Shown: piece after piece, positions 1,362 to 23,951 of the stretch
Numbering within the stretch: position 1 is the first letter of the stretch
Layout of the letters: the number at the start of each line of letters is the position of its first letter
DNA from: Thermoplasmatota archaeon
GTDB lineage: Archaea; Thermoplasmatota; E2; DHVEG-1; B18-G2
NCBI GenBank assembly: GCA_029259115.1
Contig: JAPDJO010000002.1
Span: forward strand, 27,937-51,936
Direction: 5' to 3'
Length of the DNA stretch: 24,000 bases
The notes under the pieces: model-generated
The model's input: only the letters and a program-made list of their open reading frames with translations
Told to the model about the DNA's origin: nothing
Databases searched by the model: none
Program-made: the position numbers and the translations under genes

Positions 1362-1362
1362 A

Positions 1363-5641: not shown

Positions 5642-5670
5642 AGTTTATCAAATATCCTAACCAACTCACA

Positions 5671-5688
5671 TGCATATGCAGATGCATA
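5671..5688. promoter_or_regulatory. Repeated TGCATA hexamers (one pair forms the palindrome TGCATATGCA) just upstream of the arlB1 TATA box; candidate activator/operator site
   Basis: TGCATA occurs at 5671-5676 and 5683-5688, 12 bp start to start. TGCATATGCA at 5671-5680 is a perfect palindrome, giving a third copy on the minus strand. The site lies 18-35 bp upstream of the TATA-like element at 5706-5715. Confidence 0.4.
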
Positions 5689-5705
5689 TTCATCTACAGA
5701 AAAAC

Positions 5706-6405: not shown

Positions 6406-6419
6406 GGAGGTGAGAAAGA

Positions 6420-7055: not shown

Positions 7056-7065
7056 TCTAGATAAA

Positions 7066-7105
7066 CCCTTTCTTTCCAATATTTTTTTATTCTTTTTATC
7101 TTTTT
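7066..7105 (+). terminator. Oligo-T cluster between arlB2 and arlB3; candidate (partial) archaeal intrinsic terminator
   Basis: T7 at 7082-7088, T5 at 7093-7097 and T5 at 7101-7105, preceded by the pyrimidine-rich CCCTTTCTTTCC. Archaeal RNA polymerase terminates at oligo-T tracts. Confidence 0.4.
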
Positions 7106-7139
7106 ACTAATTGGAAAACGGAGGTGGAAGAGGAACTAA

Positions 7140-7781
7140 ATGTTTAGACTAGATTCCAGAGCTAATTCGGGTGCGATAGGTATAGGTGCTTTGATTATTT
7201 TTATAGCTATGATACTCGTGGCAGGAATAGCTGCTAGTGTTATTATACAAACAATGAATAATCTTCAGAACAGGGCTATGAGCACAGGGAGGGAAACTAT
7301 AAGAGATATTTCTGCTGGAATAGAAGTACGACAAGTTTCGGGGTATGTTGTAAATTCAAAGGTAGATCAATTAGCTATCTTTGTATCTCCAATTGTTGCC
7401 TCAGAGGATATCGATCTCTCACACACTTTTATATCTCTCTCAGATACTAACAAGAAAATCATACTATCCTATGATAGTAATATGTTCAGCAGTTCAGTAA
7501 ATAATGGAGTTTTTCAGGCACTAAACTCTAGTAACTTAACATCCTCAACTTATGGAATTGTTGTCATAAGAGATCTAGATGGTTCTTGCACAGCAACATC
7601 ACCCGTGATTAATGAAAATGATATTGTCGCTCTCATTGTAAACACAACAAAGTGCTTTTCCGGTATATCTCCAAGAACAGAAGTATCTGGAAATGTTGTT
7701 CCAGAGTATGGAGTCAGTGGAGTGATAAGTTTTGTTACCCCGCCTGCACTAATAGACAAGATCGTTGATCTTCAACCTTAG
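7140..7781 (+). CDS. arlB3: Archaellin B3 (the divergent copy)
   Basis: 213 aa starting MFRLDSRANSG|[35 protein letters not shown] at 7120-7127 lies upstream. It is more AT-rich and more divergent than B1 and B2. Confidence 0.9.
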   Translation: MFRLDSRANSGAIGIGALIIFIAMILVAGIAASVIIQTMNNLQNRAMSTGRETIRDISAGIEVRQVSGYVVNSKVDQLAIFVSPIVASEDIDLSHTFISLSDTNKKIILSYDSNMFSSSVNNGVFQALNSSNLTSSTYGIVVIRDLDGSCTATSPVINENDIVALIVNTTKCFSGISPRTEVSGNVVPEYGVSGVISFVTPPALIDKIVDLQP

Positions 7782-9553: not shown

Positions 9554-9562
9554 ATTTCAAAC

Positions 9563-11218
9563 CTATACATCTATTGGAAGACCATCTACACCTTCCCTGT
9601 AATATGTCCATATAACCTTGACAACTTCGTAATAATCTAAGATATCTTCCTCGACCATCCTTTCTAATATTTTTTGCCTAAGATCAAATTCTTCGTATAT
9701 TTCTGTTGGATCTGCATATCCTGCGTTCCTCGCTATCTTTTCTTCTAAAATGTAACTATTCTTGTAAGCCACAAATCTATGGACATCCTCTAAAGGATCC
9801 CATTCGAAAGCCTTTCTAGCCATAATTCCGTCTGCTTCTCTGTTATATCCCTCTATCTCATCTACAGATATGCATCTTCTAACTTTCTTTCCTTTCCTCT
9901 CAACGGCAGACTGTATGAGAACAACATCCAGATTATCCATAAATGTCTTCGGAACGTTTATGGGATCGCTCGTAAACCTCTGTATAACCTTCGTTACACT
10001 GCCAGCATGAAATGTAGTCATAACAGGATGTCCAGTCTGCATCGCTTGGAATACTATGTTGCCTTCTGCACCTCTAACTTCACCAGGTATTATATAGTCA
10101 GGTCTTGATCTTAAAGCAGCTACTAATAGATCAAATAAATCTACTCTACTTTCTTCTGGCCCTGTTGTTTTTGTTAGTAGCCTTTGCCACACCTCATGAG
10201 GAACTTTCAGCTCTGGGGTTGTCTCTGCTGTGTATATCTTTTTCTCTGGCGGTATAAAAGGAATAAAAGCATTCATGGTAGTGGTTTTTCCGCATGCTGT
10301 CTCTCCGCATAGAAAGATATTTCTACCATACTGTAGGCATATCCAGAAATAGGCAGCTATTCCTGCGGATATCGTCTTCCATTTAATAAGCTGGGTTACG
10401 CTTATTGGTACTTCCGTGAACTTTCTTATGCTCATGCTTGGTCCTTTTATGCTCACAGCTGAGCTATATATTATATTAGCCCTGCTACCATCTGGAAGGA
10501 TACCATCGGATATGGGTTTAGCTTCGCTGACAGGATTACCCATTTTTTCACTTAAAGCTCTCGAAAATTTTGGAGCTTCATCTTTGGGTATCAGAATATT
10601 TGTTTTGATCATCCCAAATACTTTGTGAATAAGATGAACATATTCTCCAGTTATGACGTGTATATCTTCTATATACGGATCCCTCATAAAAGGTTCAAGA
10701 GGCCCTCCTCCAACTAAGGTCTTGTATATATCATATTCTATCTTTTCTTTCTCCAGTGGTGTAAGATATACTTTGCTCTCGTTTTTTCCGAACAGCTTAA
10801 GAAGACTTTTCTGGGATTTCAGTTTTATATTGCTCTCTGTTGTTACAACAATCTCATCTAACAATTCTTTCAATATCTTTTTCAGATCCTCATCATTATC
10901 TGCTGCATTCTTCCTTACGACCTCCTTTAACATAAGCTTCATTATCTTTTCTTTCTTTTCTTTCTCCTCATCATTCAAAGAAGGCTCTATCGCATGATAC
11001 TCTATCTCTTCCATCCCAGGCAGTCTATAGATGTGAACAAAAACATTTCCTTTGGTTGGGTATATTATGTTTGGATACTTCTCTTCGCTTAGTTCCATTG
11101 GAGGAGCTTTAAGAAATTTTGGTGTATCCATTTTTTCCTTTATCTTGTCGAGATATTCCTTCAAGTGGGGATTCTGTTGGATTATCTTTTCGATTTCCTC
11201 CCTCTCCATTTCATACAT
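9563..11218 (-). CDS. arlI: Archaellum motor/assembly ATPase ArlI (FlaI), distal paralogue
   Basis: 551 aa of the type II/IV secretion ATPase family. Walker A is GETACGKTT and the Walker B region is RSRPDYIIPGEVRG, followed by FQAMQTGHPVMTTFHAGS. It is about 70 percent identical (by eye) to the neighbouring copy. Confidence 0.9.
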   Translation of the reverse strand: MYEMEREEIEKIIQQNPHLKEYLDKIKEKMDTPKFLKAPPMELSEEKYPNIIYPTKGNVFVHIYRLPGMEEIEYHAIEPSLNDEEKEKKEKIMKLMLKEVVRKNAADNDEDLKKILKELLDEIVVTTESNIKLKSQKSLLKLFGKNESKVYLTPLEKEKIEYDIYKTLVGGGPLEPFMRDPYIEDIHVITGEYVHLIHKVFGMIKTNILIPKDEAPKFSRALSEKMGNPVSEAKPISDGILPDGSRANIIYSSAVSIKGPSMSIRKFTEVPISVTQLIKWKTISAGIAAYFWICLQYGRNIFLCGETACGKTTTMNAFIPFIPPEKKIYTAETTPELKVPHEVWQRLLTKTTGPEESRVDLFDLLVAALRSRPDYIIPGEVRGAEGNIVFQAMQTGHPVMTTFHAGSVTKVIQRFTSDPINVPKTFMDNLDVVLIQSAVERKGKKVRRCISVDEIEGYNREADGIMARKAFEWDPLEDVHRFVAYKNSYILEEKIARNAGYADPTEIYEEFDLRQKILERMVEEDILDYYEVVKVIWTYYREGVDGLPIDV

Positions 11219-11233
11219 GTTTCTTTCACTTTC

Positions 11234-12880
11234 TCATATCGAGAAAGGTAGACCATCTATCCCCTCTCTATAATAACTCCAGACTATCTTCACAACCTCA
11301 TAGTAATCCATTATCCCCTCTTCCACCATTCTTTCAAGTATTTTCTTCCTTAGATCAAACTCTTCGTAGATCTGCATCCTGTCTTCGAAGCCCGCATTCT
11401 TTGCGATTTTTTCCTCTAGGATATAGCTATTTCTGTTAGCCCTAAATAGATGAGTATCATCTACGGGATTCCACTCAAATGCTCTTCTTGACATGATCGC
11501 ATCTACTTCCTTGTTATATCCCTCTATCTCTTCTACAGATAATACTCTTCTTATCCTTTTCCCTTTCCTGTCTACCGCCATCTGTATCAGTATAACATCC
11601 AGATTATCCATGAAAGGCTTCGGTATATTTATTGGATGTCCGGTAAACCTCTGTATAACCTTCGTTACACTGCCAGCGTGAAATGTTGTTATAACAGGAT
11701 GTCCAGTCTGCATCGCTTGGAAGACAACCCTTGCTTCTATACCTCTCACCTCACCAGGTATTATATAGTCAGGTCTCGATCTGAGGGCTGCATCCAGAAG
11801 ATCTATAAGCTCAACATGACTCTCCTTTGGGCCTGTTGACCTAGTCAAAAGCTGTTGCCAGACTGGATGAGGAACATGAACTTCTGGTGTGTTTTCTGCT
11901 GTATAGATCTTCTTCTCTGGAGGTATAAATGGAATTATTGCATTGGTAGTGGTAGTCTTTCCAGAAGCTGTTTCGCCGCATACAAAAACACTCCTACCAT
12001 ATTGTAAGCACAGCCACAAGTATGCAGCTATTCCTGCACTCATCGTTCCCCATTTAATAAGTTGGGTTACACTTATTGGTGTCTCGCTGAACTTTCTTAT
12101 GGTCATTGTTGGACCTTTTAGGCTTACATCTTTGCTGTGAATTATATTAACTCTACTGCCATCTGGTAATGTACCATCTGCTATGGGTTGTCCTTCGCTG
12201 ACCGGACTACCTATCTTTTCACTAAACTCTTGGGAAAAGGTAGGTGCCCACTCCTCATCTATGAATATATTTGTCTTTACCATCTCAAACACTTTATGTA
12301 CAAGATGAACATGTTGTCCAGTTATGACATGAACATCTTCTATATATGGATCTCTCATAAAAGGTTCAAGAGGCCCTCCCCCTATGATACTCTTAACTAT
12401 ATCATATTCTATCTTTTCTCTTTCAATAGGTGTAAGAACGATCTTTTCTCCTTTGAACTTGCCAAATAATCCTTTCTTTTCCTCTATATCTCCTTTCTTT
12501 TCAGAAACTACAACTATCTTATCCATCATCTTTTTTATGAGTTCTCTTATTTCCTCATTCGTCCTCATTTCTTTCTTTTTTATCGCTTCTTCATAAAGCC
12601 TTTCCATAATCATATCTCTTTTCTTCTTCTCCTCATCATTCAAAGAAGGTTCTATCGCATGATACTCTATCTCTTCCATCCCAGGTAGTCTATAGATATG
12701 GATAAAGACCGTGCCTTTGGTTGGATATATCAAGTTAGGGTACTTTTCATCTCTCAGTTCTCTAGGAACCTGACTGTAGAATCTTGGAAAATCCATCTTG
12801 TCCTTTATGCTTTCTAGATATTCTTTTAAATGAGGATTCTGCTGAATCAATTTCTTAACCTCTTCTTCGTTCATTATCAT
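11234..12880 (-). CDS. arlI: Archaellum motor/assembly ATPase ArlI (FlaI), proximal paralogue
   Basis: 548 aa. Walker A is GETASGKTT and the Walker B region is RSRPDYIIPGEVRG, followed by FQAMQTGHPVITTFHAGS. It directly follows arlH. Confidence 0.9.
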   Translation of the reverse strand: MIMNEEEVKKLIQQNPHLKEYLESIKDKMDFPRFYSQVPRELRDEKYPNLIYPTKGTVFIHIYRLPGMEEIEYHAIEPSLNDEEKKKRDMIMERLYEEAIKKKEMRTNEEIRELIKKMMDKIVVVSEKKGDIEEKKGLFGKFKGEKIVLTPIEREKIEYDIVKSIIGGGPLEPFMRDPYIEDVHVITGQHVHLVHKVFEMVKTNIFIDEEWAPTFSQEFSEKIGSPVSEGQPIADGTLPDGSRVNIIHSKDVSLKGPTMTIRKFSETPISVTQLIKWGTMSAGIAAYLWLCLQYGRSVFVCGETASGKTTTTNAIIPFIPPEKKIYTAENTPEVHVPHPVWQQLLTRSTGPKESHVELIDLLDAALRSRPDYIIPGEVRGIEARVVFQAMQTGHPVITTFHAGSVTKVIQRFTGHPINIPKPFMDNLDVILIQMAVDRKGKRIRRVLSVEEIEGYNKEVDAIMSRRAFEWNPVDDTHLFRANRNSYILEEKIAKNAGFEDRMQIYEEFDLRKKILERMVEEGIMDYYEVVKIVWSYYREGIDGLPFSI

Positions 12881-12889
12881 TTTATCACC

Positions 12890-13603
12890 TCAGAATGCAA
12901 CCGCTGAAGTTTCTATTGTTAAACCTATACCTGGTCTTACTGAGAAGGTTGTTACTGGCTCATACCTATGCCTTGCACCATTGAACTTTTTGAGATAGAT
13001 ATTATGCACAATTCCCAAACCTGGCTTAGTTTCTCTAGTTACTAAGAAGTGAAGATCTGATATCATCCTAAACTCGTGATTTATCTCTTCATCCCACTCC
13101 TTCGGATTCATAGTAATAAATATGATCTTTCCAGATCCCGTTAATCTGTTAAAGAAGCTGATCAACTCTACAAGATTCTCTTTGTTTAAACTCTCCTTGA
13201 GCAGGGTAGATAGTGAATCTATGAAAATTATCTCTGGCTCAAAGAGTTTTTTAGCTGTTATAAGAGATTTAAAAAAGGTATTTCTTGGTAAAGTTTCAGC
13301 TAGCATAACCTCCGTTGAAATGAAAAACAGCTTGCCGGACATCAGATATTCTTTCATATCATATCCAACAGAAGCGACCTGGCGAAGAAAACCCTTAACA
13401 GTATATTGCGTTGATACATAGGAGCAAGTATGTCCATTTTTAAGAAAACTGTAACAGAATCTCTGGCAAAATATGCTTTTTCCTGTGCCTTCTTCACCCT
13501 CTATCAAAACTAAAGAACCATCTGGTATAGCCTGACCAAATCTCTGCTCAAATCCATCCTTCTCTCCTCCTCTTTCGAGTACTATGGATTTATAGGTCGG
13601 CAT
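12890..13603 (-). CDS. arlH: Archaellum KaiC/RecA-like ATP-binding protein ArlH (FlaH)
   Basis: 237 aa with Walker A GEEGTGKS and the Walker B-like IIFIDSLS. It occupies the canonical position between arlG and arlI. Confidence 0.88.
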   Translation of the reverse strand: MPTYKSIVLERGGEKDGFEQRFGQAIPDGSLVLIEGEEGTGKSIFCQRFCYSFLKNGHTCSYVSTQYTVKGFLRQVASVGYDMKEYLMSGKLFFISTEVMLAETLPRNTFFKSLITAKKLFEPEIIFIDSLSTLLKESLNKENLVELISFFNRLTGSGKIIFITMNPKEWDEEINHEFRMISDLHFLVTRETKPGLGIVHNIYLKKFNGARHRYEPVTTFSVRPGIGLTIETSAVAF

Positions 13604-13612
13604 CCCATCACC

Positions 13613-14065
13613 TCATATCTCAAAGTTAAACTCATCATAGACCCCTCTTGGACCAACAAGCTTTAGTTTATGGTTTCCAGAAGTTATTTCCGTGGATGAT
13701 ATGTATAGAGTTACCACATCTGACTGTAAAACATAGTTAGAAGAGAAGTAATAGTTGCTTTTTCCAATGATATTTCCATCTACGAAGACCTGAAATGTAT
13801 CATTTGTTGTTTCTATCTTCTTATCACCTATATTTTTAACATAGAAAAGATAATATCCAGCTGATATCGGTATATTTTCTGGATCATTTATGATCTCAAA
13901 GTCTGTGTCTAGCTTATCTTTGAGCCTATCACATTTCTCTGTCAGACTTTTACTTATGTCCATGGTTACAGCGGTGAATATTCCAGATACTGCTCCAGCT
14001 ACGATTACAGCTGCGATGAAGAAAACTATGTGAGTTCCCGTCAAACTGAAACCCATCCTAATCAC
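13613..14065 (-). CDS. arlG: Archaellum stator/periplasmic protein ArlG (FlaG)
   Basis: 150 aa with an N-terminal hydrophobic archaellin-like helix (GTHIVFFIAAVIVAGAVSGIF) followed by a beta-rich domain. The F-versus-G assignment rests on gene order. Confidence 0.75.
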   Translation of the reverse strand: MIRMGFSLTGTHIVFFIAAVIVAGAVSGIFTAVTMDISKSLTEKCDRLKDKLDTDFEIINDPENIPISAGYYLFYVKNIGDKKIETTNDTFQVFVDGNIIGKSNYYFSSNYVLQSDVVTLYISSTEITSGNHKLKLVGPRGVYDEFNFEI

Positions 14066-14488
14066 CTATGCACTATACGTCTCATAATCGCTAATCCCAT
14101 TTCCAGTGACAACTTTTACTCTTACTAAACCAGTATAGGTAAGATTTGTTATGTTGAGAATAACTGTATTTTCAGGATAGAGATAGGGAAGGTTATAATC
14201 GAAGTCCTCGATAGTTCCATTTACTATAACCGTGAAATCCTTAACCTCCAAGCTTACACTACCTGTATTTTCCACTTTTATAGAAATATTATAAGGTTTG
14301 CCCGGGCTTTTAGTTACATTTGTTATCTCTATATCCGTATTTGCTCTCTCTACGATTCTATCTTCCAATTTTTTGTAAGATCTTTCCAACTCAGATGCAG
14401 CCGGAAGAACACTACTCGAGAATATATCTATACATACAACTAGGCATACACCTAGTATTGCGAATGCCGCTGATGTTGAGAATCCCAT
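14066..14488 (-). CDS. arlF: Archaellum stator/S-layer-binding protein ArlF (FlaF)
   Basis: 140 aa with the MGFSTSAAFAILGVCLVV N-terminus followed by a beta-sandwich-like region. Its stop abuts the arlG start. Confidence 0.75.
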   Translation of the reverse strand: MGFSTSAAFAILGVCLVVCIDIFSSSVLPAASELERSYKKLEDRIVERANTDIEITNVTKSPGKPYNISIKVENTGSVSLEVKDFTVIVNGTIEDFDYNLPYLYPENTVILNITNLTYTGLVRVKVVTGNGISDYETYSA

Positions 14489-14517
14489 CCGTACCCCCCA
14501 AAGTTTGAGGCTTTTAT

Positions 14518-15285
14518 CTATTGAAAGGAAAGATTCTCAAGATTCTTGCTAAGTTTACTCAAATCTCTCTCTATTTTTCCTATGAAGTGCTCATCTATCT
14601 CGTTACCTTTCAACTTCTGTATGTAAAGGAATGATTGAATGTGATCCTTTGCTACAAGATTTCTTCTCTCGCTGGTTTCTTCTGTTATCCCTTCACAGTA
14701 CTCAAGTAACTTTACCTTTACATCATCTGTTATCCATCCAATATCGACGTAGTAATCTAAAACCTTGGAAATGTTATCTTTTCCTACTCTATCCACGAGG
14801 TATTGTAGCCACTTCATTACTATTACAACACCTTCTGGATCATTTGGTAGGGAATCCAAAGTAGATGCTCTGAACTCTATCTTTTCTTCTCCAGGAATCC
14901 TTATATCTTCTGGCTTGCTTTCCTTGATTTTTACATCCACATTTTTCATCCACTCGTCCTGCATCCTTTCTAGTCTCTCCACTCTTTGATGAAGATTCTC
15001 TAAAGTCTGAAGGAATTTGTTCATCTCTTCAGCAGGCTGAAATGATGTTGTGCTTGGAGGAGTTGATGGCTGAGATGTAGATGAAGTTTGTGTGGACTTC
15101 TCTCTCAGATATGAATTTATCTTATCAACTAATTTATAAAGTTGATCCTTGGTTAAAGTTAAATTTTTCTCTTTCACCTTCTCTTTTATCTTTTCAGCTA
15201 TTGATGGCGTTATTCTACCCTGAGCAACGAGGGCAGAGAGTTCTGCGCCTAGCTCAAATTTTTCAACCAAATCCTTATCACTCAT
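14518..15285 (-). CDS. arlD: Archaellum accessory protein ArlD/E (FlaD/E family)
   Basis: 255 aa. The C-terminal LPNDPEGVVIVMKWLQYLVDRVGKDNISKVLDYYVDIGWITDDVKVKLLEY matches the FlaD/E domain signature (W-L-x-x-L ... YY-x-x-I-G-W-I). A Ser/Thr/Pro linker and an N-terminal helical region precede it. Confidence 0.85.
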   Translation of the reverse strand: MSDKDLVEKFELGAELSALVAQGRITPSIAEKIKEKVKEKNLTLTKDQLYKLVDKINSYLREKSTQTSSTSQPSTPPSTTSFQPAEEMNKFLQTLENLHQRVERLERMQDEWMKNVDVKIKESKPEDIRIPGEEKIEFRASTLDSLPNDPEGVVIVMKWLQYLVDRVGKDNISKVLDYYVDIGWITDDVKVKLLEYCEGITEETSERRNLVAKDHIQSFLYIQKLKGNEIDEHFIGKIERDLSKLSKNLENLSFQ

Positions 15286-16024
15286 TTTTTACCTCCTCCA
15301 AAAACCTATCAATCACATCATCTATACTATCTTCCAACATTAACGTTGATATTGCTTTTTCTACAACATCATCGAGTTTCATAGAACTACCCGATAATGT
15401 AGGAGTAACCTCTGTAGCCATCCCTGTAGTCTCAGTAGATCTATCTGTCGGTATTTTACCAACAAGTATTTCCAAATCTTCTAGCCTGCTTTTTATCTTC
15501 TCAAACTCTTCTGTGAATTTCTCTAGAGCTTCTAGCCTCTGCTTTGTTACTTTTGATAAACCAACAAATGGATTCATTTGTTCAGAGACTATTTCGTATA
15601 GGCTTACCAAATCATCTAAATCCTTGTTGAGATTCTCTATTCGATTCTCGAGATCCTTTATCATGTCCCTATTTTTTGATATTTCGACTTCCAACTTAGA
15701 CAATTGTTTATCTAAGTTTGGTAAGATGTTGGTAGCTGGTACTTGTGGTTGCGATTGTTTATCTTCCTCCTTGACTGGGGCAGGAGTTATCTCCTTTTCC
15801 TTGGTTTCTAAGGTTACATCTTGTTGCTCTTCCTGCTCCTTCCTGCTCTCGGTTTCTTCTGAAGAACTTTCCTTCTTCTCGAATTTCAACATTTTCCTAG
15901 TTCCGTCTCCAAGATCAACCTCTTTTACCATAACTTCTTCCTTGTTTTCTTTTATCTCCCCCTCCTCTTTCCCTTTCCTAAACTTTAACTTTATACTAAC
16001 CCCTCCACCTCCGTTTTTAAACAA
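15278..16024 (-). CDS. arlC: Archaellum accessory protein ArlC (FlaC family)
   Basis: 248 aa. A coiled coil ends in DDLVSLYEIVSEQMNPFVGL, the FlaC signature (YE-x-V-x-x-x-x-NPF). The start is uncertain: the track start is TTG at 16024, and the first ATG is at 15931 (Met32). It overlaps arlD/E by 8 nt. Confidence 0.8.
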   Translation of the reverse strand: MFKNGGGGVSIKLKFRKGKEEGEIKENKEEVMVKEVDLGDGTRKMLKFEKKESSSEETESRKEQEEQQDVTLETKEKEITPAPVKEEDKQSQPQVPATNILPNLDKQLSKLEVEISKNRDMIKDLENRIENLNKDLDDLVSLYEIVSEQMNPFVGLSKVTKQRLEALEKFTEEFEKIKSRLEDLEILVGKIPTDRSTETTGMATEVTPTLSGSSMKLDDVVEKAISTLMLEDSIDDVIDRFLEEVKNE

Positions 16025-16030
16025 TTAGGT

Positions 16031-16049
16031 AATATCTATATCAGATATT
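16031..16049. promoter_or_regulatory. Inverted repeat AATATCT-N5-AGATATT abutting the TATA-like element of the divergent arlC / PAS-protein promoter region
   Basis: The 7-bp arms at 16031-16037 and 16043-16049 are perfect reverse complements. The adjacent TTTATATTTTTA (16048-16059) is TATA-like on both strands. Confidence 0.3.
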
Positions 16050-16147
16050 TATATTTTTACCTCATCTCTCTGTTTGCAGGAAAAATCTTTTAAAATCTAA
16101 TAGCCTAACTGAATTGGAGGAGGAGTTTAACACGGAGGTTAAAATAG

Positions 16148-17983
16148 ATGTCACAAGATAGTAGATCCAATAATTATATGGATTTTTTTATACTTGGTAT
16201 AGATAGCAATGCTAGACTTATTGCATTCAACAGAAAGTGCGAAGAGTTAACTGGTTACAGGAGGGATGAGATTCTCCATAGAAAGATATGGGGCACCATT
16301 TTTCCTAAAGAATATAGAAGGAATTGGAATAGTATATTTTTGGATAGGGTAGAAAGAATCGAGTTACCTCTCCTAGATAAAAATAGAAAGAGGCTAGATC
16401 TAGTCTGGAGTCCTATGGAAGTAGGTATCAAAGATAAAGAAATTTGGCTCATTGGAGTAGAGAGATCGGAAGAAAATAAACTCTGGGATTTTTTAGAAAT
16501 AGAAAAAGTTGGAAACCCTGTTGATAAGAAAAATAATAACGAGAATCTGAAGAAAAAGATCGATGAATTGTTAAAAGTCAAGAATTCAATAGAAATTGCA
16601 ACAAATCTTATAGAAAGACAATGGAAGAAGATAAGTGATTATGCAAAACAACTAAGCAATATGGAAAAGATTTTGGAGAAAGAAAAAAGAAAACTTGAGA
16701 AAGAGAAGAAAGAGATGGAGAAACATAGGGAAAGAGTGGAAAACCTAATGGAGAGAAAACTTTTCTATTTTGAGAGAAAACTCAGGGAAAAAACAAATAA
16801 AATTTCCAAACTAAGTGAGAGAGGATCTGTTTTAAAGAATTTGAATGAAAGATTGAGAGAGATAGAGTATATGAGCAGGGAACTAGAAGTAATGTTGAAT
16901 GGAGTGATGGAAAAAGAGGCAGAGATCAAAGATCTAGAAAAGAGAATTAACCTAGAGAAGGAAAACTTGGAGAAAGACAAAAGAGAAATCAGAATGAAGC
17001 TGAAAACCATTGAGACCAAGGAAAAGGAACTGGTAAGAAAAGAGAACGAGCTGAGAAAAAGAATCAGAGAGGTAGAGAATAAGGAGAGAGATATACAAAA
17101 TATGAAAATCAAACTGGAAAATGAAAGGAGAATATTGGAAGAAAGGATGAAAGATATTGAAAAGAGACTGGAATTAGAGAAAAATATATTCATGGAGCAA
17201 CTAGAGAGTAAATATAAAGCTGTATTTGAAAGAAAAATAAATGATCTCAAAAGAAAACTCGAAGATTATAAAACAAGAGAAAAAGAACTTAAATTAGATA
17301 TAACTCTCCTTAAAAAAAGAGAGAAGGAATTGGAGAAGGAGATAGAGAAATACAGATCTAAGGAAAAGGAGCTACTTGAGCTAGAGGAGAAGATAAATAA
17401 AGAAAGAGAAGAAATCGCTAAACTCGAAGAAGAAATCAATGCAAGGAGTAAACTGCTAGAAGAGATGGAAAACAGGGAAAGAGAAATCATATACAGGGAA
17501 AACGAACTCAGGAAGAAGGAGAAACAACTCAGGGAGAAAGAGAGAGAGCTGATAGATAGAGAGAGAGAACTCCGAGACATGCTTATAAGATCATCATTAC
17601 AAGAAACGACATTGCCTATAGTGAAAGAAACCAAAAAATTGGAACAAGAGACCGAAGAATCAAAAGATCTCTCTGAGATGGAGATCCCTGCCGCACTTGT
17701 AAGGAAAGGAATGATCCTCAAAGCAAATGAACAGTTCCTTTCTCTCACAGGACTTAGTGAAAGAGATATTACCAACAAAAGCTTCTTTTCGTTGATAGCT
17801 CCAGAAGAACTCCCAAACCTGCAGAGATATTACTTATCTAGATTAAAAGGAGCAGATATAGATTCAATCGATACTATTATAGTGAACAGCAAAAATGAAA
17901 AAATACCAGTGAAAATAAAATTAAATCAAATAAAATTAAGAGACGGTATCTTTGATTTAGCGCTTATAGAGTCGTTAGACTAG
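16148..17983 (+). CDS. PAS / long coiled-coil / PAS protein with no recognisable output domain
   Basis: 611 aa. The N-terminal ~110 aa are PAS-like (FILGIDSNARLIAFNRKCEELTGYRRDEILHRKIW). Residues ~125-490 are an uninterrupted E/K/R/L-rich heptad-type region. The C-terminal ~100 aa form a second PAS-like fold (ALVRKGMILKANEQFLSLTGLSERDITNKSFFSLIAPEE). GGAGGT lies 8 nt upstream of the ATG. Confidence 0.8.
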   Translation: MSQDSRSNNYMDFFILGIDSNARLIAFNRKCEELTGYRRDEILHRKIWGTIFPKEYRRNWNSIFLDRVERIELPLLDKNRKRLDLVWSPMEVGIKDKEIWLIGVERSEENKLWDFLEIEKVGNPVDKKNNNENLKKKIDELLKVKNSIEIATNLIERQWKKISDYAKQLSNMEKILEKEKRKLEKEKKEMEKHRERVENLMERKLFYFERKLREKTNKISKLSERGSVLKNLNERLREIEYMSRELEVMLNGVMEKEAEIKDLEKRINLEKENLEKDKREIRMKLKTIETKEKELVRKENELRKRIREVENKERDIQNMKIKLENERRILEERMKDIEKRLELEKNIFMEQLESKYKAVFERKINDLKRKLEDYKTREKELKLDITLLKKREKELEKEIEKYRSKEKELLELEEKINKEREEIAKLEEEINARSKLLEEMENREREIIYRENELRKKEKQLREKERELIDRERELRDMLIRSSLQETTLPIVKETKKLEQETEESKDLSEMEIPAALVRKGMILKANEQFLSLTGLSERDITNKSFFSLIAPEELPNLQRYYLSRLKGADIDSIDTIIVNSKNEKIPVKIKLNQIKLRDGIFDLALIESLD

Positions 17984-18832
17984 CTCTACTATTCTGTTTG
18001 TGAACACACATGGTGCAGCAGCATCAAATGTACCAGGCGCTCCTACCTCCGGAACGAAGCTGCCAGATATTGATGCTCTTGGTGGTAATCCGGTTGAGTT
18101 GAATGCAGCAGAGAGATTGACTATTATTATTGCTTTGTCTCCGACATTCATACCATAGTTCCTGTATATTGAACCATCTGCATCGTGTAAGGCTATTATT
18201 CCAAAGGTTGTTGCATTCAGAGATACGCTCAGCGTATGGAAAACTCCATCTGGACTAACCTTGGATGCAACATATCCGTCTTGGTCAGAGTATGTTAATG
18301 TAATTAGCCTATCATATTTCAGATATAATATAGTATTCTTGAGATCTATATCTTGAGAACCAGATCTTGGTCTCACAGTCAGAGCCAGATGGGTTATGTA
18401 TGTCTTATTCTCGTTTGTATAACCTACTACATCTATAACAGCTAAGCCACTCGAAATCTCTCTAGTTGTCTGCAAACCAACCTTGTTCGCTCTTTGTTGC
18501 AGAGTTTCTCCAGTTTTTATAAGAACGCTTGCTGCGACCGCAGATACCAGAATCATAGCTATAAACACTATCAGTGTACCTATACCAACGAAAGCCATTT
18601 GATCTCCTTTAAAACTCTTTTTGATTTTCCTCATTGATCTAGGCTTTATTGCCACTATTGACTTCAGATTCAAACAACCTAGCCCTTGATCAGAATCTAC
18701 GATCACAAAACCTGCATCATAATCTATTTCTTCCAAAATCCCAGAGATGACACTAGCTCTTTCCTTACCCGGCTCCTTTAATACTATCTTACAGTATCTT
18801 CCCACCAGCCTATCCATATACCTCTTCTCCAC
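17975..18832 (-). CDS. arlB4: Fourth archaellin with an in-frame N-terminal extension (Sm-like small beta-barrel pattern)
   Basis: 285-aa ORF. Residues 80-285 are a typical archaellin (FVGIGTLIVFIAMILVSAVAASVLIKTGETLQQRANKVG ... PEVGAPGTF). Residues 67-79, MRKIKKSFKGDQM, resemble a normal class III leader. Residues 1-66 are extra. There are three candidate starts. GTG 18832 has AAGGAGGTG upstream (GGAGG at 18842-18846, 9-nt spacer). ATG 18634 has no obvious SD. ATG 18598 has AAGGAG 5-6 nt upstream. Confidence 0.85.
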   Translation of the reverse strand: MEKRYMDRLVGRYCKIVLKEPGKERASVISGILEEIDYDAGFVIVDSDQGLGCLNLKSIVAIKPRSMRKIKKSFKGDQMAFVGIGTLIVFIAMILVSAVAASVLIKTGETLQQRANKVGLQTTREISSGLAVIDVVGYTNENKTYITHLALTVRPRSGSQDIDLKNTILYLKYDRLITLTYSDQDGYVASKVSPDGVFHTLSVSLNATTFGIIALHDADGSIYRNYGMNVGDKAIIIVNLSAAFNSTGLPPRASISGSFVPEVGAPGTFDAAAPCVFTNRIVELV

Positions 18833-18855
18833 TTCTCACCACCTCCTTTACGTTC

Positions 18856-18888
18856 CATTTCCCATGCCACTTGATTGCATGGGAAATG
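18856..18888 (-). promoter_or_regulatory. Perfect 12-bp-stem / 9-nt-loop inverted repeat in the predicted 5' UTR of arlB4
   Basis: CATTTCCCATGC (18856-18867) and GCATGGGAAATG (18877-18888) are exact reverse complements. The structure ends 10 nt upstream of the SD of arlB4 and about 28 nt downstream of a minus-strand TATA-like TTTAAATATT (18916-18925). Confidence 0.45.
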
Positions 18889-18915
18889 TTGTCATGTATT
18901 ATGTCTTCAAGTAAC

Positions 18916-18925
18916 AATATTTAAA
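18916..18925 (-). promoter_or_regulatory. Candidate TATA box for arlB4
   Basis: The minus strand reads TTTAAATATT. Its position predicts a transcript starting near 18890, which would place the hairpin at the extreme 5' end of the mRNA. Confidence 0.3.
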
Positions 18926-18936
18926 CCTTACTTGGA

Positions 18937-18957
18937 AAATTATCAAATTGATAATTT
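18937..18957. promoter_or_regulatory. Perfect 21-bp palindrome AAATTATCAA-A-TTGATAATTT in the divergent arlB4 / archaellin-like gene intergenic region; candidate dimeric-regulator operator
   Basis: The 10-bp arms are exact reverse complements around a single central A. The site lies just upstream of the putative arlB4 TATA and about 55 bp upstream of the TATA of the + strand gene. Confidence 0.4.
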
Positions 18958-19010
18958 GTCACATGTTCTCATGCTTCATAATATCTCGACAACATTTGTA
19001 CAATAACTCG

Positions 19011-19018
19011 TTTATAAG
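19011..19018 (+). promoter_or_regulatory. Candidate TATA box for the 19038 gene (leaderless transcript)
   Basis: TTTATAAG starts 27 nt upstream of the ATG at 19038. No SD is present, which fits a leaderless mRNA. Confidence 0.4.
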
Positions 19019-19037
19019 CAAAGTTCCAAAGTTTTAA

Positions 19038-19622
19038 ATGATGAGAGAAGCAGGGAGTACAGGAATTGCATCGGCTATCCTTCTGATAGCGATACTACTC
19101 ATGGGCAGTAGTGCAATCTATACAACAATAAGTCAGGATAGCATATCTTCAGGTGATTTCGAAAATAAGGTAAATGAAATACTAGATGACATAACCTCAT
19201 ATTTCCTAGTAAAAGAAGGCTATGCCAAAACAGACGGGAACGAAATCAAAATACTCTTACTGGTTAAACCTATCTTTGATGATCCCATCTCAATATCAAA
19301 TCTCACTCTTCAGGTAATTGATGATGATTCTATTCATGTGTTGAAACTTCACGACATATATGAAACAGGGAAAGATTTGTTTGATAGCGACCTCTGGAGC
19401 GAGATTAATCAGAGCTTTTGTATAATCCCTGTTGTTGATAGAGATGAATCCATTTCCAAAGAAAAGACGGTGAATGGAGATTTGTTTTATGTGGCCTTGT
19501 GCCTAAGAGGGATAGAAATAGGCGAAGATATTGAGATTTCTATTCTATCGGAGACAGGGTCAATTTCTGTATTAACCATCGATATACCCTTCTCCACGTC
19601 TGATGTTTTCAAGATATACTAA
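19038..19622 (+). CDS. Protein with an archaellin/type IV pilin-like N-terminus and a novel C-terminal domain
   Basis: 194 aa. MMREAGSTGIASAILLIAILLMGSSAIYTTISQDS aligns in pattern with the archaellin N-termini of this window (G-x-x-G-I-x-x-x-I-x-x-I-A-x-x-L). The remainder is acidic and beta-rich with no motif I recognise. Confidence 0.6.
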   Translation: MMREAGSTGIASAILLIAILLMGSSAIYTTISQDSISSGDFENKVNEILDDITSYFLVKEGYAKTDGNEIKILLLVKPIFDDPISISNLTLQVIDDDSIHVLKLHDIYETGKDLFDSDLWSEINQSFCIIPVVDRDESISKEKTVNGDLFYVALCLRGIEIGEDIEISILSETGSISVLTIDIPFSTSDVFKIY

Positions 19623-21157
19623 TGCCTAAAATATCTCTGTCCAGTAAATACCATTATTAGCCCATGCTCATCCGCCGCCTTTATAACTTCTTCATCCCTT
19701 ATTGATCCTCCTGGCTGAACTATGGCTTTTACTCCAGCCTCCGCAGCAAGATCGACAGCATCTCTAAATGGAAAGAACGCATCACTCGCCATTATAGAAC
19801 CTTTTATCCTGTCTTTCCCTTTATGGGTAGCGATAAATGTTGCATCAACTCTAGCTGTTTGTCCTCCTCCTATAGCTACCGTATGAGTATCTTTTACAAA
19901 GACTACAGCATTTGATTTCACATGTTTTACACATTTCACTGCAAATACCATGGATCTTATATCCTCAGCCGAAGGCTTCCTCTTTGTAACGACTTTCCAA
20001 TCCTTTGGATCTATTTCTTTAACGTCTCTATCCTGAATCAACATACCTCCAGTCACACTCCTAAAACAGATATCTTCGGACTTATCATCGATATCTGGTA
20101 CTTCTAAGAGACGAAGCCTTTTCTTTTTACCGAGAATCTGAAGAGCCCTTTCTGTAAACTTAGGGGCAACTATAACTTCTAAGAAGTATTTGGATAGATC
20201 TTCTGCTAGCTTAGAATCAACTTCTCTATTAAATGCTACAACTCCGCCAAATGGAGAGTATGTATCTGTTTCATAGGCTTTTATCCAAGCATCAAAAATG
20301 TTATCTGATGAGGCTATCCCGCAAGGAGTAGCATGTTTGATAATAACGGCTGTTGGTTCATCAAACTCTTTTACACATTCTAGAGCAGCATCAGCATCTA
20401 GTATGTTGTTGTAGGATAGCTCCTTTCCCTGAAGTTTTCTAGCATTTGCTATACATCCTTCTGCTCTCTCTGGTAGGATTTTGTAGAATGCACCTTCCTG
20501 ATGCGGATTCTCTCCGTATCTAGTCTTTTGTATCAATTCAAATGTTAGAGTTAAATTCTTTGGAAATTTCTCGTTAAGCAACCTTTTTCTTAGATAATTT
20601 GATATTATCGCATCATATCTTGCAACATGTTCAAAAGCCTCGACAGCTAGCTTTTTTCTGAACTCTTCATCTATCCCTATCTTAAGCTTTTCTATTAGCT
20701 CATCGTATCTGGATGGATTTACAACAATAAGTACATCCTCAAAATTCTTTGCTGCAGATCTTATGAGCGTAGGTCCACCGATATCTATGTTCTCTATAAC
20801 TTCATGCAAATCCACATTTTCCTTCTTTATGATCTCTTCAAAAGGATAGAGATTACATACCACTAGATCTATGGGTTTCATTGATAAATTCCTTAGAATG
20901 TTCAGATGTTCTTCTTTCTCTCTCTTTGCAAGGATGCCTGCATGAATCTTGGGGTGCAAAGTTTTTACCCTTCCATCTAATATCTCTGGAAAGCCGGTAA
21001 AATCTGATAATTCTGTGACATCTATTCCCTTTTCTTTCAAGAATCTATACGTTCCTCCGGTAGATATTATGTCAAAGTTGAGTTTCTGAAGCTCCTTGGC
21101 TAAAAAATCTACCCCTCTTTTATCATAGACACTTATCAGTGCTAATCTCTTTCCCAT
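19619..21157 (-). CDS. purH: Bifunctional AICAR transformylase / IMP cyclohydrolase
   Basis: 512 aa with SVYDKRG, STGGT and DGRVKTLHPKIHAGIL in the MGS-like IMP cyclohydrolase domain, followed by a full-length AICARFT domain. Confidence 0.92.
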   Translation of the reverse strand: MGKRLALISVYDKRGVDFLAKELQKLNFDIISTGGTYRFLKEKGIDVTELSDFTGFPEILDGRVKTLHPKIHAGILAKREKEEHLNILRNLSMKPIDLVVCNLYPFEEIIKKENVDLHEVIENIDIGGPTLIRSAAKNFEDVLIVVNPSRYDELIEKLKIGIDEEFRKKLAVEAFEHVARYDAIISNYLRKRLLNEKFPKNLTLTFELIQKTRYGENPHQEGAFYKILPERAEGCIANARKLQGKELSYNNILDADAALECVKEFDEPTAVIIKHATPCGIASSDNIFDAWIKAYETDTYSPFGGVVAFNREVDSKLAEDLSKYFLEVIVAPKFTERALQILGKKKRLRLLEVPDIDDKSEDICFRSVTGGMLIQDRDVKEIDPKDWKVVTKRKPSAEDIRSMVFAVKCVKHVKSNAVVFVKDTHTVAIGGGQTARVDATFIATHKGKDRIKGSIMASDAFFPFRDAVDLAAEAGVKAIVQPGGSIRDEEVIKAADEHGLIMVFTGQRYFRH

Positions 21158-21204: not shown

Positions 21205-21969
21205 TTAATTAGAAGACTTGCTGAATTTGATAGCCTCTTCCATTTCGATTTCTCCTTTGAGAACTTTAAGTGCTAATTCTCTGGATATAGTTATTCTACC
21301 ACCGCTTAGGATCCTACTTTTTCTCTGCACTTCCTTTATTTCTCCATCGGTAAATCTTCTGTCTCCATTTCCTCTTACCGATCTACCTCTTGATTTTGCT
21401 ATCCTTATAGCAGCTACCTCGTTTCTTTCCATTCTTGAGTATCCAGTTCTCTGACTCGTTTTTGTTTCATCTACTATTTCAATTCTGATATCAACATCTC
21501 TTAAACCGTCTATGATTCTATCCCTGTAAATTCTGGCATCATGGCCTATCCTTACTATCCTCTCCTTGTCTGAAAAGTCACTCAGAATTTTTCTTACTAT
21601 TCCTAAAGCCTCATCTGTGGATGATGCACACCAGGTTCTTAGAACAGTTTCACCAGAGAGGAGGGCTATACCAGGGTACTCCCCTGGATCTATTCCTATC
21701 ACGATCTCGTCACTATTTCCATGTAAAATTTGCATAGCCCTATCCAATGCAGAATCTATGTCTCTAAAACAGTCAGCATATACGACCTTCCTTCCGCCTA
21801 TATCTTTACCCTCAGCTGAAGATGTTATAATGACACCAACCTTATGCGGTATTCTATCTATGGAGTGTAAATGAATATAATCTATGCCTCTTTCATTCAT
21901 CTTATTCATTATGTCATGTGCTAGCGAGAAATCCTTTGTGTATATCCCCACTATCTTCATCTTTCCCAC
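21205..21969 (-). CDS. Conserved hypothetical protein with an RNase H-fold (RuvC/YqgF-like) core
   Basis: 254 aa. IVIGIDPGEYPGIALL (the first acidic-residue strand typical of RuvC/YqgF folds) is followed by IEIVDETKTS (a second acidic motif), with a basic C-terminal tail. It overlaps the upstream cca ORF by 13 nt. The functional call is tentative. Confidence 0.45.
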   Translation of the reverse strand: MGKMKIVGIYTKDFSLAHDIMNKMNERGIDYIHLHSIDRIPHKVGVIITSSAEGKDIGGRKVVYADCFRDIDSALDRAMQILHGNSDEIVIGIDPGEYPGIALLSGETVLRTWCASSTDEALGIVRKILSDFSDKERIVRIGHDARIYRDRIIDGLRDVDIRIEIVDETKTSQRTGYSRMERNEVAAIRIAKSRGRSVRGNGDRRFTDGEIKEVQRKSRILSGGRITISRELALKVLKGEIEMEEAIKFSKSSN

Positions 21970-23951
21970 GGCATCTTGTTTTCTATATACTCTGTCCAGA
22001 ATAATTTCAAATCATCCCTTAATAAATCTTTCGATGTAAGGATGCTAAATTTACCATCTTTTACAACTTCCTCTATATCTTTTCCGAGGCTTAATTTTCT
22101 CAGATTTTTAGCGAGAAAATCATCCAATCTATTATATTTCCTTTTTACCTCTACATACCACCTTCCATCTTTGAGATAAGGTCCTTTAACTACTTCTTTG
22201 CTGTTTCTCCATTTTTCCAAGAAAGCTTCAACATGCCTTTTTTCTTTTTCTGGAGGTCCCCTATGTATGTATGTTTCTGGTAGTTCTATCTCTTTTGGCT
22301 TGAGAAGAATGTATATCTTGTCTTCAGTGACCACAAACCTTCCATCCTCTATCTCGAAATCATTTTCTTCACACGATTTAACTATCCTTCTCAAAGTCTT
22401 CTTTGCCTGTGGGTACAGATTATCTGGAATTATATCCGGCTTTTCTATTTCTACCCCGATAAAACCATCTAGATGTTTTTTTATTTCCTCATCAGGTAGA
22501 GGTTTTATGGTTTGAGGGAAAAAGAATCTCTCGCTCGGCTTTTCCAGATATTCTTTGCATGCTCTTTTGAATATCTCTAGTTTCTCCTCGGATACGGCTG
22601 ATGCAACATTTCTGTTTGGATCTACCGGATCTATAAAAACTAAAGGATCATTAAAAGCTGGCGAAGGAACTTCCTTGAGTTTTATCACCTCCCCCTTTTT
22701 CCAGTCTTTTGCATTCCTAAGAACATTTTCAAAGGATCCATATTTTAGTATCAGGAGTTCACATAGATAACCCGAAAAACCTTCTACCTCTGCCTCTGCA
22801 CCATAACAACCTATACCTTTTAGAAATCTTTTTAACAATCTTACATCCTTTCTTTTTCTGAAAGGTAGATTTTCTCTTATGAAATCTGTATGAAAGGGAG
22901 TTCTATCAACCGCAGATATCTTTTCAGATGCTTTTTTCACTCTATAGCAAGGAACAATCTCGACATCATATCCCTTGTACTTTCCCCTTATATAGGGATG
23001 CTCCGCATATCTTTCTTCATGCTTTTCCAGTATTTTTCTGCCTATCAAAAGTCCCTTTCTTTCCATTTCCTTTCTCGGTGTGTTTGGAGGGAACAGTAAA
23101 AATATGTCTATATCTACGGAATCTCTAAGATAAGTATCTTTAGCAACTGATCCAACCAATTTTGGTACAGCTTTTATGTTCTCTTTCTTGATTTCCTTTT
23201 CTATTTTGTCTAAGAGCTCTAAAACTATCCTGTTCAGTTTCCTTCTCTCAGCAAAACTCGGTGTAATCTTTCTCAAAACCTCTTTTTCTATGCTGTTCTC
23301 GTAATTCACTACTCCGCAAGCTATCAAAAATATAGATATCCCTCCAATAACATCTGTTATCCAGTGTATGGATAGATATAGCACTGAGAATATCACACCT
23401 AGAGCAGATATCAAAGTGATGTAGAAATATCTTCTATCTCTCATAAAACTCGATGACTTTACTAGGAGAAGTGCCATTGCAACATGTAAGGATGGAAAAC
23501 AGTTATTTTTCGTTGTTACTGCATAAAAGAACTTCTCAATCCCTGGTATGATCTTACCCAAATGGAAATCTATGCCTAAATATGTGTACACATTTGTTAC
23601 AGGTAGAAATAGATAAAAGGGCAGGGCGCAGAGATAGATTATAACCAAACCATATGATAAACTCCTCATGGCTTTTTCCTCGTTGCCAATCAAGAATAGG
23701 AGTGGAGAAAACCATAGGGTAAATGGGTAGAGGATCATATAGAAGAATACTGAGATAATGGAGATCAAGTTAGAAGTATTTTGAGATAGATATTCGAAAA
23801 AACCTTTCTCATAAGAATAGAAGACCGGAGCAAAATCTTTCCCTATTAGATTGGTGGTAAATCTATCTATGAAGTTCACTTCAAACAAGTGGAAAAGTAC
23901 AACCAGAATTAATATAATCAGATGTAATCTGAGATTGAAAAATCCTTCCAT
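21957..23951 (-). CDS. cca: Single ORF fusing an N-terminal membrane PAP2-type phosphatase/phosphotransferase domain to the archaeal class I CCA-adding tRNA nucleotidyltransferase
   Basis: 664 aa. Residues 1-213 have about 6 TM helices and the PAP2 motifs FPSLHVAMA and SIHWITDVIGG. Residues ~220-664 carry GSVAKDTYLRDSVDIDIFLLF, AEHPYIRG, VDRTPFHTDF and GFSGYLCELL, which are diagnostic of archaeal CCA-adding enzymes. No stop separates the two parts. The only candidate internal start is GTG 23309-23307 (Val215). Confidence 0.85.
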   Translation of the reverse strand: MEGFFNLRLHLIILILVVLFHLFEVNFIDRFTTNLIGKDFAPVFYSYEKGFFEYLSQNTSNLISIISVFFYMILYPFTLWFSPLLFLIGNEEKAMRSLSYGLVIIYLCALPFYLFLPVTNVYTYLGIDFHLGKIIPGIEKFFYAVTTKNNCFPSLHVAMALLLVKSSSFMRDRRYFYITLISALGVIFSVLYLSIHWITDVIGGISIFLIACGVVNYENSIEKEVLRKITPSFAERRKLNRIVLELLDKIEKEIKKENIKAVPKLVGSVAKDTYLRDSVDIDIFLLFPPNTPRKEMERKGLLIGRKILEKHEERYAEHPYIRGKYKGYDVEIVPCYRVKKASEKISAVDRTPFHTDFIRENLPFRKRKDVRLLKRFLKGIGCYGAEAEVEGFSGYLCELLILKYGSFENVLRNAKDWKKGEVIKLKEVPSPAFNDPLVFIDPVDPNRNVASAVSEEKLEIFKRACKEYLEKPSERFFFPQTIKPLPDEEIKKHLDGFIGVEIEKPDIIPDNLYPQAKKTLRRIVKSCEENDFEIEDGRFVVTEDKIYILLKPKEIELPETYIHRGPPEKEKRHVEAFLEKWRNSKEVVKGPYLKDGRWYVEVKRKYNRLDDFLAKNLRKLSLGKDIEEVVKDGKFSILTSKDLLRDDLKLFWTEYIENKMPWER

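Follow-up and report, generated by a model that had tools for sequence, protein, structure and literature searches.

A complete archaellum locus lies within a 24,000-nucleotide window of a Thermoplasmatota archaeon (assembly GCA_029259115.1, contig JAPDJO010000002.1, positions 27,937 to 51,936), and three further genes stand directly beside its arlC-J operon. They encode a PAS-domain protein of 611 residues (16148-17983, plus strand), an archaellin with a long N-terminal extension that we call ExtB (ArlB4 in the preliminary description of this DNA; 17975-18832, minus strand) and a divergent protein of 194 residues, p194 (19038-19622, plus strand), as the preliminary description had reported. 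We found that all three genes belong to a conserved extension of the archaellum locus that is specific to one lineage, the Thermoprofundales-type Thermoplasmata. ExtB is a genuine archaellin, and its precursor has two parts: the archaellin itself and, ahead of it, a leader formed by a barrel with an Sm/Hfq-like fold (residues 1-64) and a basic linker (residues 65-80). Our best overall explanation, to which we give a probability of about 0.45, is that the ExtB precursor is cleaved and releases an Sm-like factor, with the PAS protein serving as a putative coiled-coil sensor-scaffold together with a second motor ATPase, ArlI2.

A pattern scan with the N-terminal domain of ExtB (the N-domain) on species-representative genomes returned 122 loci, of which 79 distinct loci were kept. 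All sequences come from uncultured metagenome-assembled genomes, and the co-occurrence counts carry no correction for phylogeny. Gene order is fixed in 71 related loci of Thermoprofundales-type Thermoplasmata: p194 in reverse orientation, extB forward in one or two copies, the PAS-coiled-coil gene in reverse, and then arlC, arlD/E, arlF, arlG, arlH, arlI1, arlI2 and arlJ forward. This recurrence is more than a chance arrangement. The divergent archaellin-like gene is found upstream of extB in 60 of the 65 informative loci, and a convergent PAS-coiled-coil gene, encoding 344-701 residues, follows extB and precedes arlC-J in 48 of 55. In arlJ-centred metagenome loci, arlJ is followed by canonical arlB genes, between two and four of them, and by an EarA-like gene; ExtB is therefore always an additional archaellin. 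Among the genomes, SG8-52-3, SM1-50 and 3300003432D have been published as Thermoprofundales / MBG-D (PMC6461988). The preliminary description had proposed that the three genes form an undescribed accessory layer of the archaellum, and had named loss of linkage to arl genes in relatives as a finding that would refute this. The linkage is conserved; together with the co-occurrence of the PAS gene and a duplicated arlI (see below), it upholds a conserved, undescribed accessory layer.

The extension of ExtB is a genuine part of the protein. The gene encodes 285 residues from a GTG start (18832), 7 nt downstream of the Shine-Dalgarno sequence GGAGGTG (18840-18846, minus strand), and its homologues conserve GGAGGTG or GAAGGTG there as well. 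More than 120 database homologues, all from uncultured Thermoplasmata or Thermoplasmatota, span 98-100% of the 285 residues at 53-100% identity, and residues 1-5 are conserved among them. Mean column identity reaches 80% in the N-domain (residues 1-64; 18641-18832, minus strand) compared with 55% over the whole of ExtB, and the N-domain surface loops EPG, QGLGC and AIKP are invariant. The internal methionines 67 and 79 are unconserved. Since only 7 of 77 homologues have any methionine in the linker, the archaellin part generally could not be made without the N-domain, which rules out an internal start at M67 or M79 as well as two overlapping genes. It is thus extremely improbable that the extension is an over-long call of an open reading frame (ORF) next to chance neighbours. 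One gene caller did begin an identical protein at M6 (280 residues), and p194 barely exceeds its Pfam threshold, but such a reading is contradicted by conservation over the full length, by the Shine-Dalgarno sequence, by the absence of any internal start that is conserved, and by synteny in 71 loci. The extended archaellin of the preliminary description is therefore real, although the extension comprises 80 residues (M1-A80) rather than 66-79; what had been described as a longer ORF is a conserved domain with a predicted Sm fold, followed by a linker that ends at a signal-peptidase-type site.

The remainder of ExtB is a typical archaellin. The predicted mature protein (residues 81-285, 205 residues; 17978-18592, minus strand) consists of a hydrophobic N-terminal helix and a beta-sandwich. 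Residues 80-269 score 111.5 bits against the Arch_flagellin profile (PF01917; cut-off 29.5), and residues 81-284 align over their full length with solved archaellins (phmmer; 5o4u, E 2e-45). Identity is 35-42% to the three canonical archaellins of the window, ArlB1-3, and 38-43% to solved archaellins, and the assembly helix is almost identical to that of ArlB1-3. In Foldseek searches the best matches of the C-terminal part were also solved archaellins (7ofq_A, 3.8e-19; 5ya6, root-mean-square deviation (rmsd) 2.0 Å), with ArlF and ArlG as weaker matches. Homologues of ExtB are annotated in their source records simply as flagellin ("flagellin FlaB").

AlphaFold2 models of full-length ExtB (predicted local distance difference test score (pLDDT) 81) and of the N-domain alone (pLDDT 86) agree with each other. 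They show a short helix (H3-7) and five strands, then a disordered linker, the long archaellin helix and the beta-sandwich. The basic linker (residues 65-80; 18593-18640, minus strand) falls below a pLDDT of 50 at residues 68-78. The models identify the N-domain as a small beta-barrel with an Sm/Hfq-like fold, presumably cytoplasmic. It shares the N-terminal helix and five strands of Sm, LSm and Hfq proteins, and in two independent models superposes on Sm-fold proteins (SmAP1, 1loj, and Hfq of several species) with an rmsd of 1.5-2.8 Å and TM scores of 0.6-0.85 in Foldseek. It differs from them in having no sequence-family match and in being fused to a secreted filament subunit, and any ring formation or RNA binding by the N-domain is putative. 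The N-domain has no fitting Pfam family, and a profile search of the PDB gave no significant match.

The leader is predicted to end at a class-III-type signal-peptidase site, A80/F81 (F81 codon, 18590-18592). This is where the cut is expected, because residue 1 of the mature archaellin chains 7ofq_A and 8rh5 (M. villosus and O. meridianum) aligns with F81. Among 75 unique ExtB-family sequences, the residue at -1, just before the conserved xVGIGTLIVFIAM helix, is alanine in 60 and glycine in 15, and thus small without exception; positions +3 to +8 (GIGTLI) hardly vary, and acidic residues occupy -3 and -4, with lysine at -6. With its small residue at -1, the conserved hydrophobic helix that follows and the basic residues ahead of the site, ExtB resembles the archaellins and type IV pilins that carry class III signal peptides. 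Known class III leaders are short and unstructured (about 4-30 residues), whereas those of the ExtB family are 76-111 residues long (80 in the window) and contain an independently folding domain that is also found free; ExtB falls outside that definition, yet its cleavage motif itself is conserved. For comparison, 26 residues were considered unusually long for the leader of Oxyplasma meridianum ArlB (PMC12448462).

The same junction bears on whether ExtB is cleaved at all. If it were not, it would be a bitopic protein whose Sm-like domain stays in the cytoplasm while its archaellin domain faces outwards. It would then serve as the final subunit at the base of the filament, as a terminator, or as an anchor of the filament or stator to a cytoplasmic coiled-coil scaffold. 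Positions -2 to -4 of ExtB, atypical and acidic compared with ArlB1-3, fit this arrangement; the coiled-coil neighbours could form such a scaffold, and ArlF and ArlG illustrate that archaellin-fold proteins may take non-filament roles. We nevertheless consider it unlikely. The strict small residue at -1 is needed by a signal-peptidase site and has no obvious use in an uncleaved protein, the archaellin part is close to filament archaellins and not to ArlF or ArlG, and there are genomes in which the N-domain functions without an archaellin attached. An uncleaved leader would make ExtB a candidate transmembrane link between the filament and a cytoplasmic scaffold.

In several genomes the N-domain occurs as a free ORF of 66-90 residues that keeps all of the invariant residues. 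These stand-alone genes show pairwise ratios of nonsynonymous to synonymous substitution (dN/dS) of 0.04-0.16, with dS saturated, and this purifying selection implies that the N-domain is autonomous. A profile search of 1.8 billion representatives recovered 88 relatives of the N-domain, mostly free proteins of 64-100 residues. The stand-alone loci are ordered as a giant coiled-coil gene and the N-domain gene, both forward, a phosphofructokinase-like gene and EarA in reverse; an N-domain gene beside the phosphofructokinase-like gene and EarA was found in seven of them (L032, L043, L062, L072, L074, L082 and L087), and L082 retains a 60-residue remnant of p194. Set against the full locus, the stand-alone loci seem to have arisen by deletion or inversion of the archaellum cluster, with breakpoints exactly at the boundary of the domain. 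One distant stand-alone homologue is located on a 2.7-kb contig, which was uninformative about its gene context.

Genes with the N-domain, fused or free, also share an element in their 5' leader. The preliminary description had pointed to a perfect hairpin and a perfect 21-bp palindrome between extB and p194, and both are exact. The hairpin (18856-18867 / 18877-18888) has a 12-bp stem and a 9-nt loop and overlaps a 51-nt element (18858-18908, minus strand) in which the hairpin comes after a conserved ACATG box; the core of the hairpin was recovered with RNAalifold. In a gap-free alignment of 49 leaders, pairing positions are complementary in 78.8% of cells, compared with 30-47% in slid controls; covariation is 0.196 versus 0.087 in shuffles, none of 500 shuffles scored as high, and 43 cells carry changes on both sides where 13 were expected. 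The G-U pairs fit only the sense strand, and compensatory changes are seen in close relatives. A covariance model found one element upstream of every N-domain gene, including the stand-alone loci and loci outside the training set, and nowhere else in 0.5 Mb, which rules out an operator shared across a regulon. No Rfam 15 family matched the hairpin, with nothing below E 0.6 in 15900-19700. A TATA-like box, TTTAAATA (18918-18925, minus strand; CTTTAAATA is conserved in close relatives), would by the usual archaeal spacing place the transcription start of extB near the ACATG box and the hairpin at the 5' end of the mRNA. The palindrome (10+1+10; AAATTATCAA-A-TTGATAATTT, 18937-18957) lies between the two divergent TATA boxes and is a candidate operator. 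Its left half (GTGACAAATTATCA) and an imperfect symmetry recur in L010, L012 and L013 and not in the wider family, so that of the two repeats the hairpin is family-wide with covariation, whereas the palindrome, exact in the window, is found in imperfect form in the closest relatives only. EarA-type TACATA/TACATG boxes were considered as the basis of the promoter motifs and rejected, as they are not enriched in the window (28 observed, 22 expected).

Taken together, we propose the following tentative mechanism. The ExtB precursor would enter the membrane with a cytoplasmic N-terminus, and a prepilin peptidase of the ArlK/PibD type would cut at A80/F81. The 205-residue archaellin would then become part of the filament as a minor subunit next to ArlB1-3. 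So would p194, which evolves fast and would be a second minor archaellin, transcribed from the divergent promoter. For each processed subunit, one Sm-like module would be freed into the cytoplasm and act there independently as a regulatory factor. The hairpin conserved in the leader of its own mRNA would be its likeliest first target, and binding there would create feedback between archaellin processing and expression. In lineages that carry ArlI2, the PAS/coiled-coil/PAS protein may serve the motor as a sensor-scaffold in the cytoplasm. The boldest form of this proposal, in which the archaellin precursor doubles as the membrane-tethered pro-form of an Sm-like regulator that the peptidase releases once per subunit, with feedback through the leader RNA and other targets, is rather doubtful. 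Two known systems may be compared with it: Hfq autoregulates through its own 5' untranslated region in E. coli, and the FlgM/sigma-28 system of bacterial flagella is an export checkpoint in which the inhibitor is exported. The logic shared with FlgM/sigma-28 would be that the availability of a regulator is coupled to filament assembly or export, a link that is entirely hypothetical here; the mechanism would be opposite and unrelated, because the factor would be freed into the cytoplasm by cleavage of the leader.

Several observations weigh against this proposal. The Foldseek E-values of the N-domain are weak (0.005-0.1), as expected from its small size of 64 residues, and Tudor, SH3-like and RimP barrels match it as well. 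Pfam returned no LSM or Hfq match for the N-domain and only sub-threshold hits to RimP_C, DUF6897 and YolD; with a fold match at weak E-values and no sequence family, we call the domain Sm/Hfq-like in fold and not a member of the family. By residue count the barrel carries no net charge. The core of the hairpin, CATG, is itself highly conserved, so sequence-specific recognition by a protein is possible, and a stem-loop at the start of the transcript might do no more than stabilise it. Position -2 of the ExtB family is often E, H or Q, and Methanococcus FlaK prefers K or R there; no prepilin peptidase gene lies in the window. What the sequences establish is the domain architecture, its conservation across the family, the synteny, the conserved cleavage site, the autonomy of the N-domain and the leader RNA element; cleavage, release, RNA binding and sensing are what we infer.

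The main rival keeps the Sm-like domain, tethered or released, and lets it dock on ArlI, ArlJ, ArlH or ArlCDE instead of RNA, as a protein adaptor and a landing site for PAS/coiled-coil proteins. Such docking would accord with the Sm fold, with the invariant surface loops of the N-domain and with the PAS/coiled-coil proteins that flank N-domain genes in almost all loci and that, in most lineages, include giant ones. It also has a cyanobacterial precedent, in which Hfq binds the pilus ATPase PilB and is targeted by the coiled-coil taxis protein HmpF (PMC11407516). In the cyanobacterial Hfq-PilB-EbsA and HmpF system, as here, an Sm-fold protein and coiled-coil proteins accompany a type IV filament machine that is powered by an ATPase of the PilB/ArlI family (PMC11407516), but there is no homology between the two, the archaeal coiled-coil proteins carry PAS domains and the Sm-like module is the leader of a filament subunit. 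We also considered the PAS protein and its coiled-coil relatives as members of the HmpF family (PF28019); faint precomputed matches were not reproduced, with none at E <=0.1 for the window protein and four relatives. Adaptor docking is weakened by this missing HmpF similarity (no match reproduced at E <0.1) and by stand-alone N-domain genes that have survived deletion of the arl operon, arlI included, from their loci; the gene-specific leader hairpin is left unexplained. We consider such docking rather doubtful.

The PAS protein has PAS domains above the Pfam threshold at both ends (residues 11-69 and 519-602; PAS_9 41.3 bits, PAS 32.9, PAS_3 29.4) and matches TIGR00229 (E 1.1e-11). Its N-terminal PAS domain is encoded at about 16178-16483, a charged helical region at about 16493-17632 and the C-terminal PAS domain at about 17702-17953, all on the plus strand. 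In the central region, residues ~116-495 (about 380), 52% of the residues are E, K, R or Q, with two prolines and three glycines, and there are weak matches to SMC arms. From this composition and these matches we take the region to be a probable coiled coil. The PAS/coiled-coil/PAS architecture of the preliminary description thus stands for the PAS domains, while the coiled coil fits the composition and a global heptad periodicity test of the region was not significant. A Pfam/NCBIfam scan of the protein found no kinase, HAMP, MCP, GGDEF or DNA-binding domain, and no LOV-type cysteine motif is visible. The gene is divergent from arlC and convergent with extB, and the stop codons of the latter pair overlap by 9 nt (17975-17983). 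The 123-bp region between arlC and the PAS gene (16025-16147) contains the inverted repeat ATATCT-N5-AGATAT and two A/T-rich TATA-like stretches, and the PAS gene has its own GGAGGT Shine-Dalgarno sequence. Three antisense ORFs within the PAS gene (16255-17778, minus strand; 108-170 residues, rich in S, L and F) were rejected as genes; they and the strong GC/AT skew at 16001-18000 result from the purine-rich coding strand of the PAS gene.

A second ArlI ATPase, noted in the preliminary description, is indeed present in the operon. ArlI2 (9563-11218, minus strand; 551 residues, P-loop CGETACGKTT) lies next to ArlI1 (11234-12880, minus strand), the orthologue of the single ArlI in loci without a PAS gene, and is 63-67% identical to ArlI orthologues. 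The P-loop GxTAxGKTT is intact in 37 of 37 ArlI2 and 42 of 44 ArlI1 sequences, with the family-wide signatures CG(G/E)TACGKTT for ArlI2 and CGETASGKTT for ArlI1. A PAS gene and two arlI genes occur together in 19 loci; two loci have no PAS gene and one arlI, and a further, degenerate locus (L001) has no PAS gene and only a truncated arlI. We found no locus with a PAS gene and one arlI, or with two arlI and no PAS gene. Two loci (L099 and L125) have three arlI genes.

These counts also bear on the suggestion of the preliminary description that ExtB and p194 form an alternative filament with its own dedicated ATPase. The window does contain two extra archaellin-type genes with a divergent promoter of their own, as well as a second ArlI. 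Yet ExtB and p194 are present with a single ArlI in L002, L006 and L120, which rules out ArlI2 as an ATPase dedicated to them; together with the co-occurrence of ArlI2 and the PAS gene, these loci tie ArlI2 to the PAS protein and not to the extra archaellins, so that the expected association with a duplicated arlI holds for the PAS gene and fails for ExtB and p194. Moreover, there is no second ArlJ, ArlH, ArlF or ArlG, and the near identity of the ExtB assembly helix to that of ArlB1-3 favours co-polymerisation. A separate filament is therefore improbable.

For p194, the single-sequence score against Arch_flagellin is marginal (30.3 bits versus a cut-off of 29.5). It has a pilin-type N-terminus, MMREAGSTG|IASAILLIA, which in the family reads G|IA(A/S)AILLI. 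The profile of the p194 family matches that of ArlB with 99.1% and that of ExtB with 99.5% hhalign probability over 182-187 columns, its full length, compared with 6.5% for ArlF and 1.2% for ArlG; as a control, ArlF and ArlG of the window match each other with 98.9%. This comparison rules out a stator protein of the ArlF/ArlG type and identifies p194, from its family profile, as a very divergent, probably minor archaellin, in agreement with the archaellin-type N-terminus noted before. The syntenic homologues in the 60 of 65 loci are only 24-29% identical between clades and thus fast-evolving. The position of the TATA-like sequence TTTATAAG (19011-19018, plus strand) suggests that the p194 mRNA is leaderless. 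The gene converges on purH, with an overlap of 4 nt at the stop codons (19619-22); because of such overlaps there is no room for terminators between p194 and purH or between the PAS gene and extB.

In most lineages the p194 homologue is met by a convergent gene for a giant coiled-coil protein of 400-2700 residues, often with PAS domains (for example L003:5885-9079, L004:5909-7966 and L006:7557-9005). These proteins share the conserved C-terminal motif WKEKLKIYDEIDK...LKTKK, also given as WKEKLKIYDEIDKxL...LKTKK. A gene with the C-terminal LKTKK motif is absent from all six frames of the window, where, as in its subclade and closest relatives, purH takes its place.

Compared with the canonical euryarchaeal archaellum of Pyrococcus furiosus and Methanococcus maripaludis, the window shares the core order, the short-leader arlB1-3 and an EarA-like gene, and it differs by four conserved additions: an archaellin with a folded leader of 80 residues, a highly divergent archaellin, the PAS/coiled-coil/PAS protein and a second ArlI. 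No description of this layer was found in the literature searched, within which the locus is an undescribed variant of the known archaellum system. Thermoprofundales genome papers treat archaellum genes at most in passing, and the terms PAS and N-terminal extension are absent from a 2016 census of archaeal type IV pilus systems (PMC4858521).

Four candidates, all of them widely conserved, emerge from the locus in a group that ranks among the most abundant sediment archaea: a filament subunit with a folded leader, a dedicated leader RNA element, PAS/coiled-coil partners and a motor ATPase that travels with the PAS protein. To our knowledge, few regulators of archaella have been described, no checkpoint between filament assembly and gene expression is known for them, and no type IV filament system has a described checkpoint that is coupled to assembly. 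Cleavage and activity of the leader would mean that a folded, working protein can serve as a class III signal peptide; this would broaden the concept of such peptides, provide a route to assembly-coupled regulation and give archaella a checkpoint of this kind. Whether cleaved or not, the current annotation as "flagellin FlaB" hides this feature of ExtB. The locus also bears on how signals reach the motor in archaea that lack che genes. No che genes were found among the ORFs scanned in the window, as reported before, although 24 kb says little about the whole genome; PAS-based input, with the sensory role that we infer, is a candidate control route in their place.

The archaellum locus itself is of the euryarchaeal type, and Pfam and NCBIfam profiles identified all core components within the window in their usual order. 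The canonical archaellins arlB1-3 (5764-7781, plus strand) have leaders of 9-11 residues ending in G. On the minus strand, arlJ, the two arlI genes, arlH, arlG, arlF, arlD/E and arlC occupy 7778-16024, as assigned from the ORF list and profile matches, with arlH to arlC at 12890-16024. An EarA-like transcription regulator that the preliminary description did not mention (4838-5176, plus strand; PF07381, E 1.6e-25) lies upstream of arlB1-3 and closes the locus at its far end. Relatives have a homologue in this terminal position, and homologues also adjoin stand-alone N-domain genes.

Just upstream of the TATA-like box of arlB1, the interval 5640-5700 contains repeated ATGCA(T/G)AT and CATG motifs (CACATGCATATGCAGATGCATAT). 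CATG is also the conserved core of the ExtB leader hairpin, and a regulator shared by arlB1 and ExtB through these motifs is possible. Between the EarA-like gene and arlB1, an ORF of 145 residues (5173-5610, minus strand) has a lipoprotein-like signal sequence (…LIAGC) and no Pfam match, and L102 has a homologue in the same place. Elsewhere in the window, a 350-residue pentapeptide-repeat protein (3698-4750, minus strand), apparently unrelated to motility, adjoins a pyruvate:ferredoxin oxidoreductase operon (456-3358). The gene order cca, p254, purH is retained in the closest relatives, and the CCA-adding enzyme (tRNA nucleotidyltransferase; 21957-23951, minus strand) has an unusual architecture, with a membrane phosphatase domain of the PAP2 family fused to its N-terminus.

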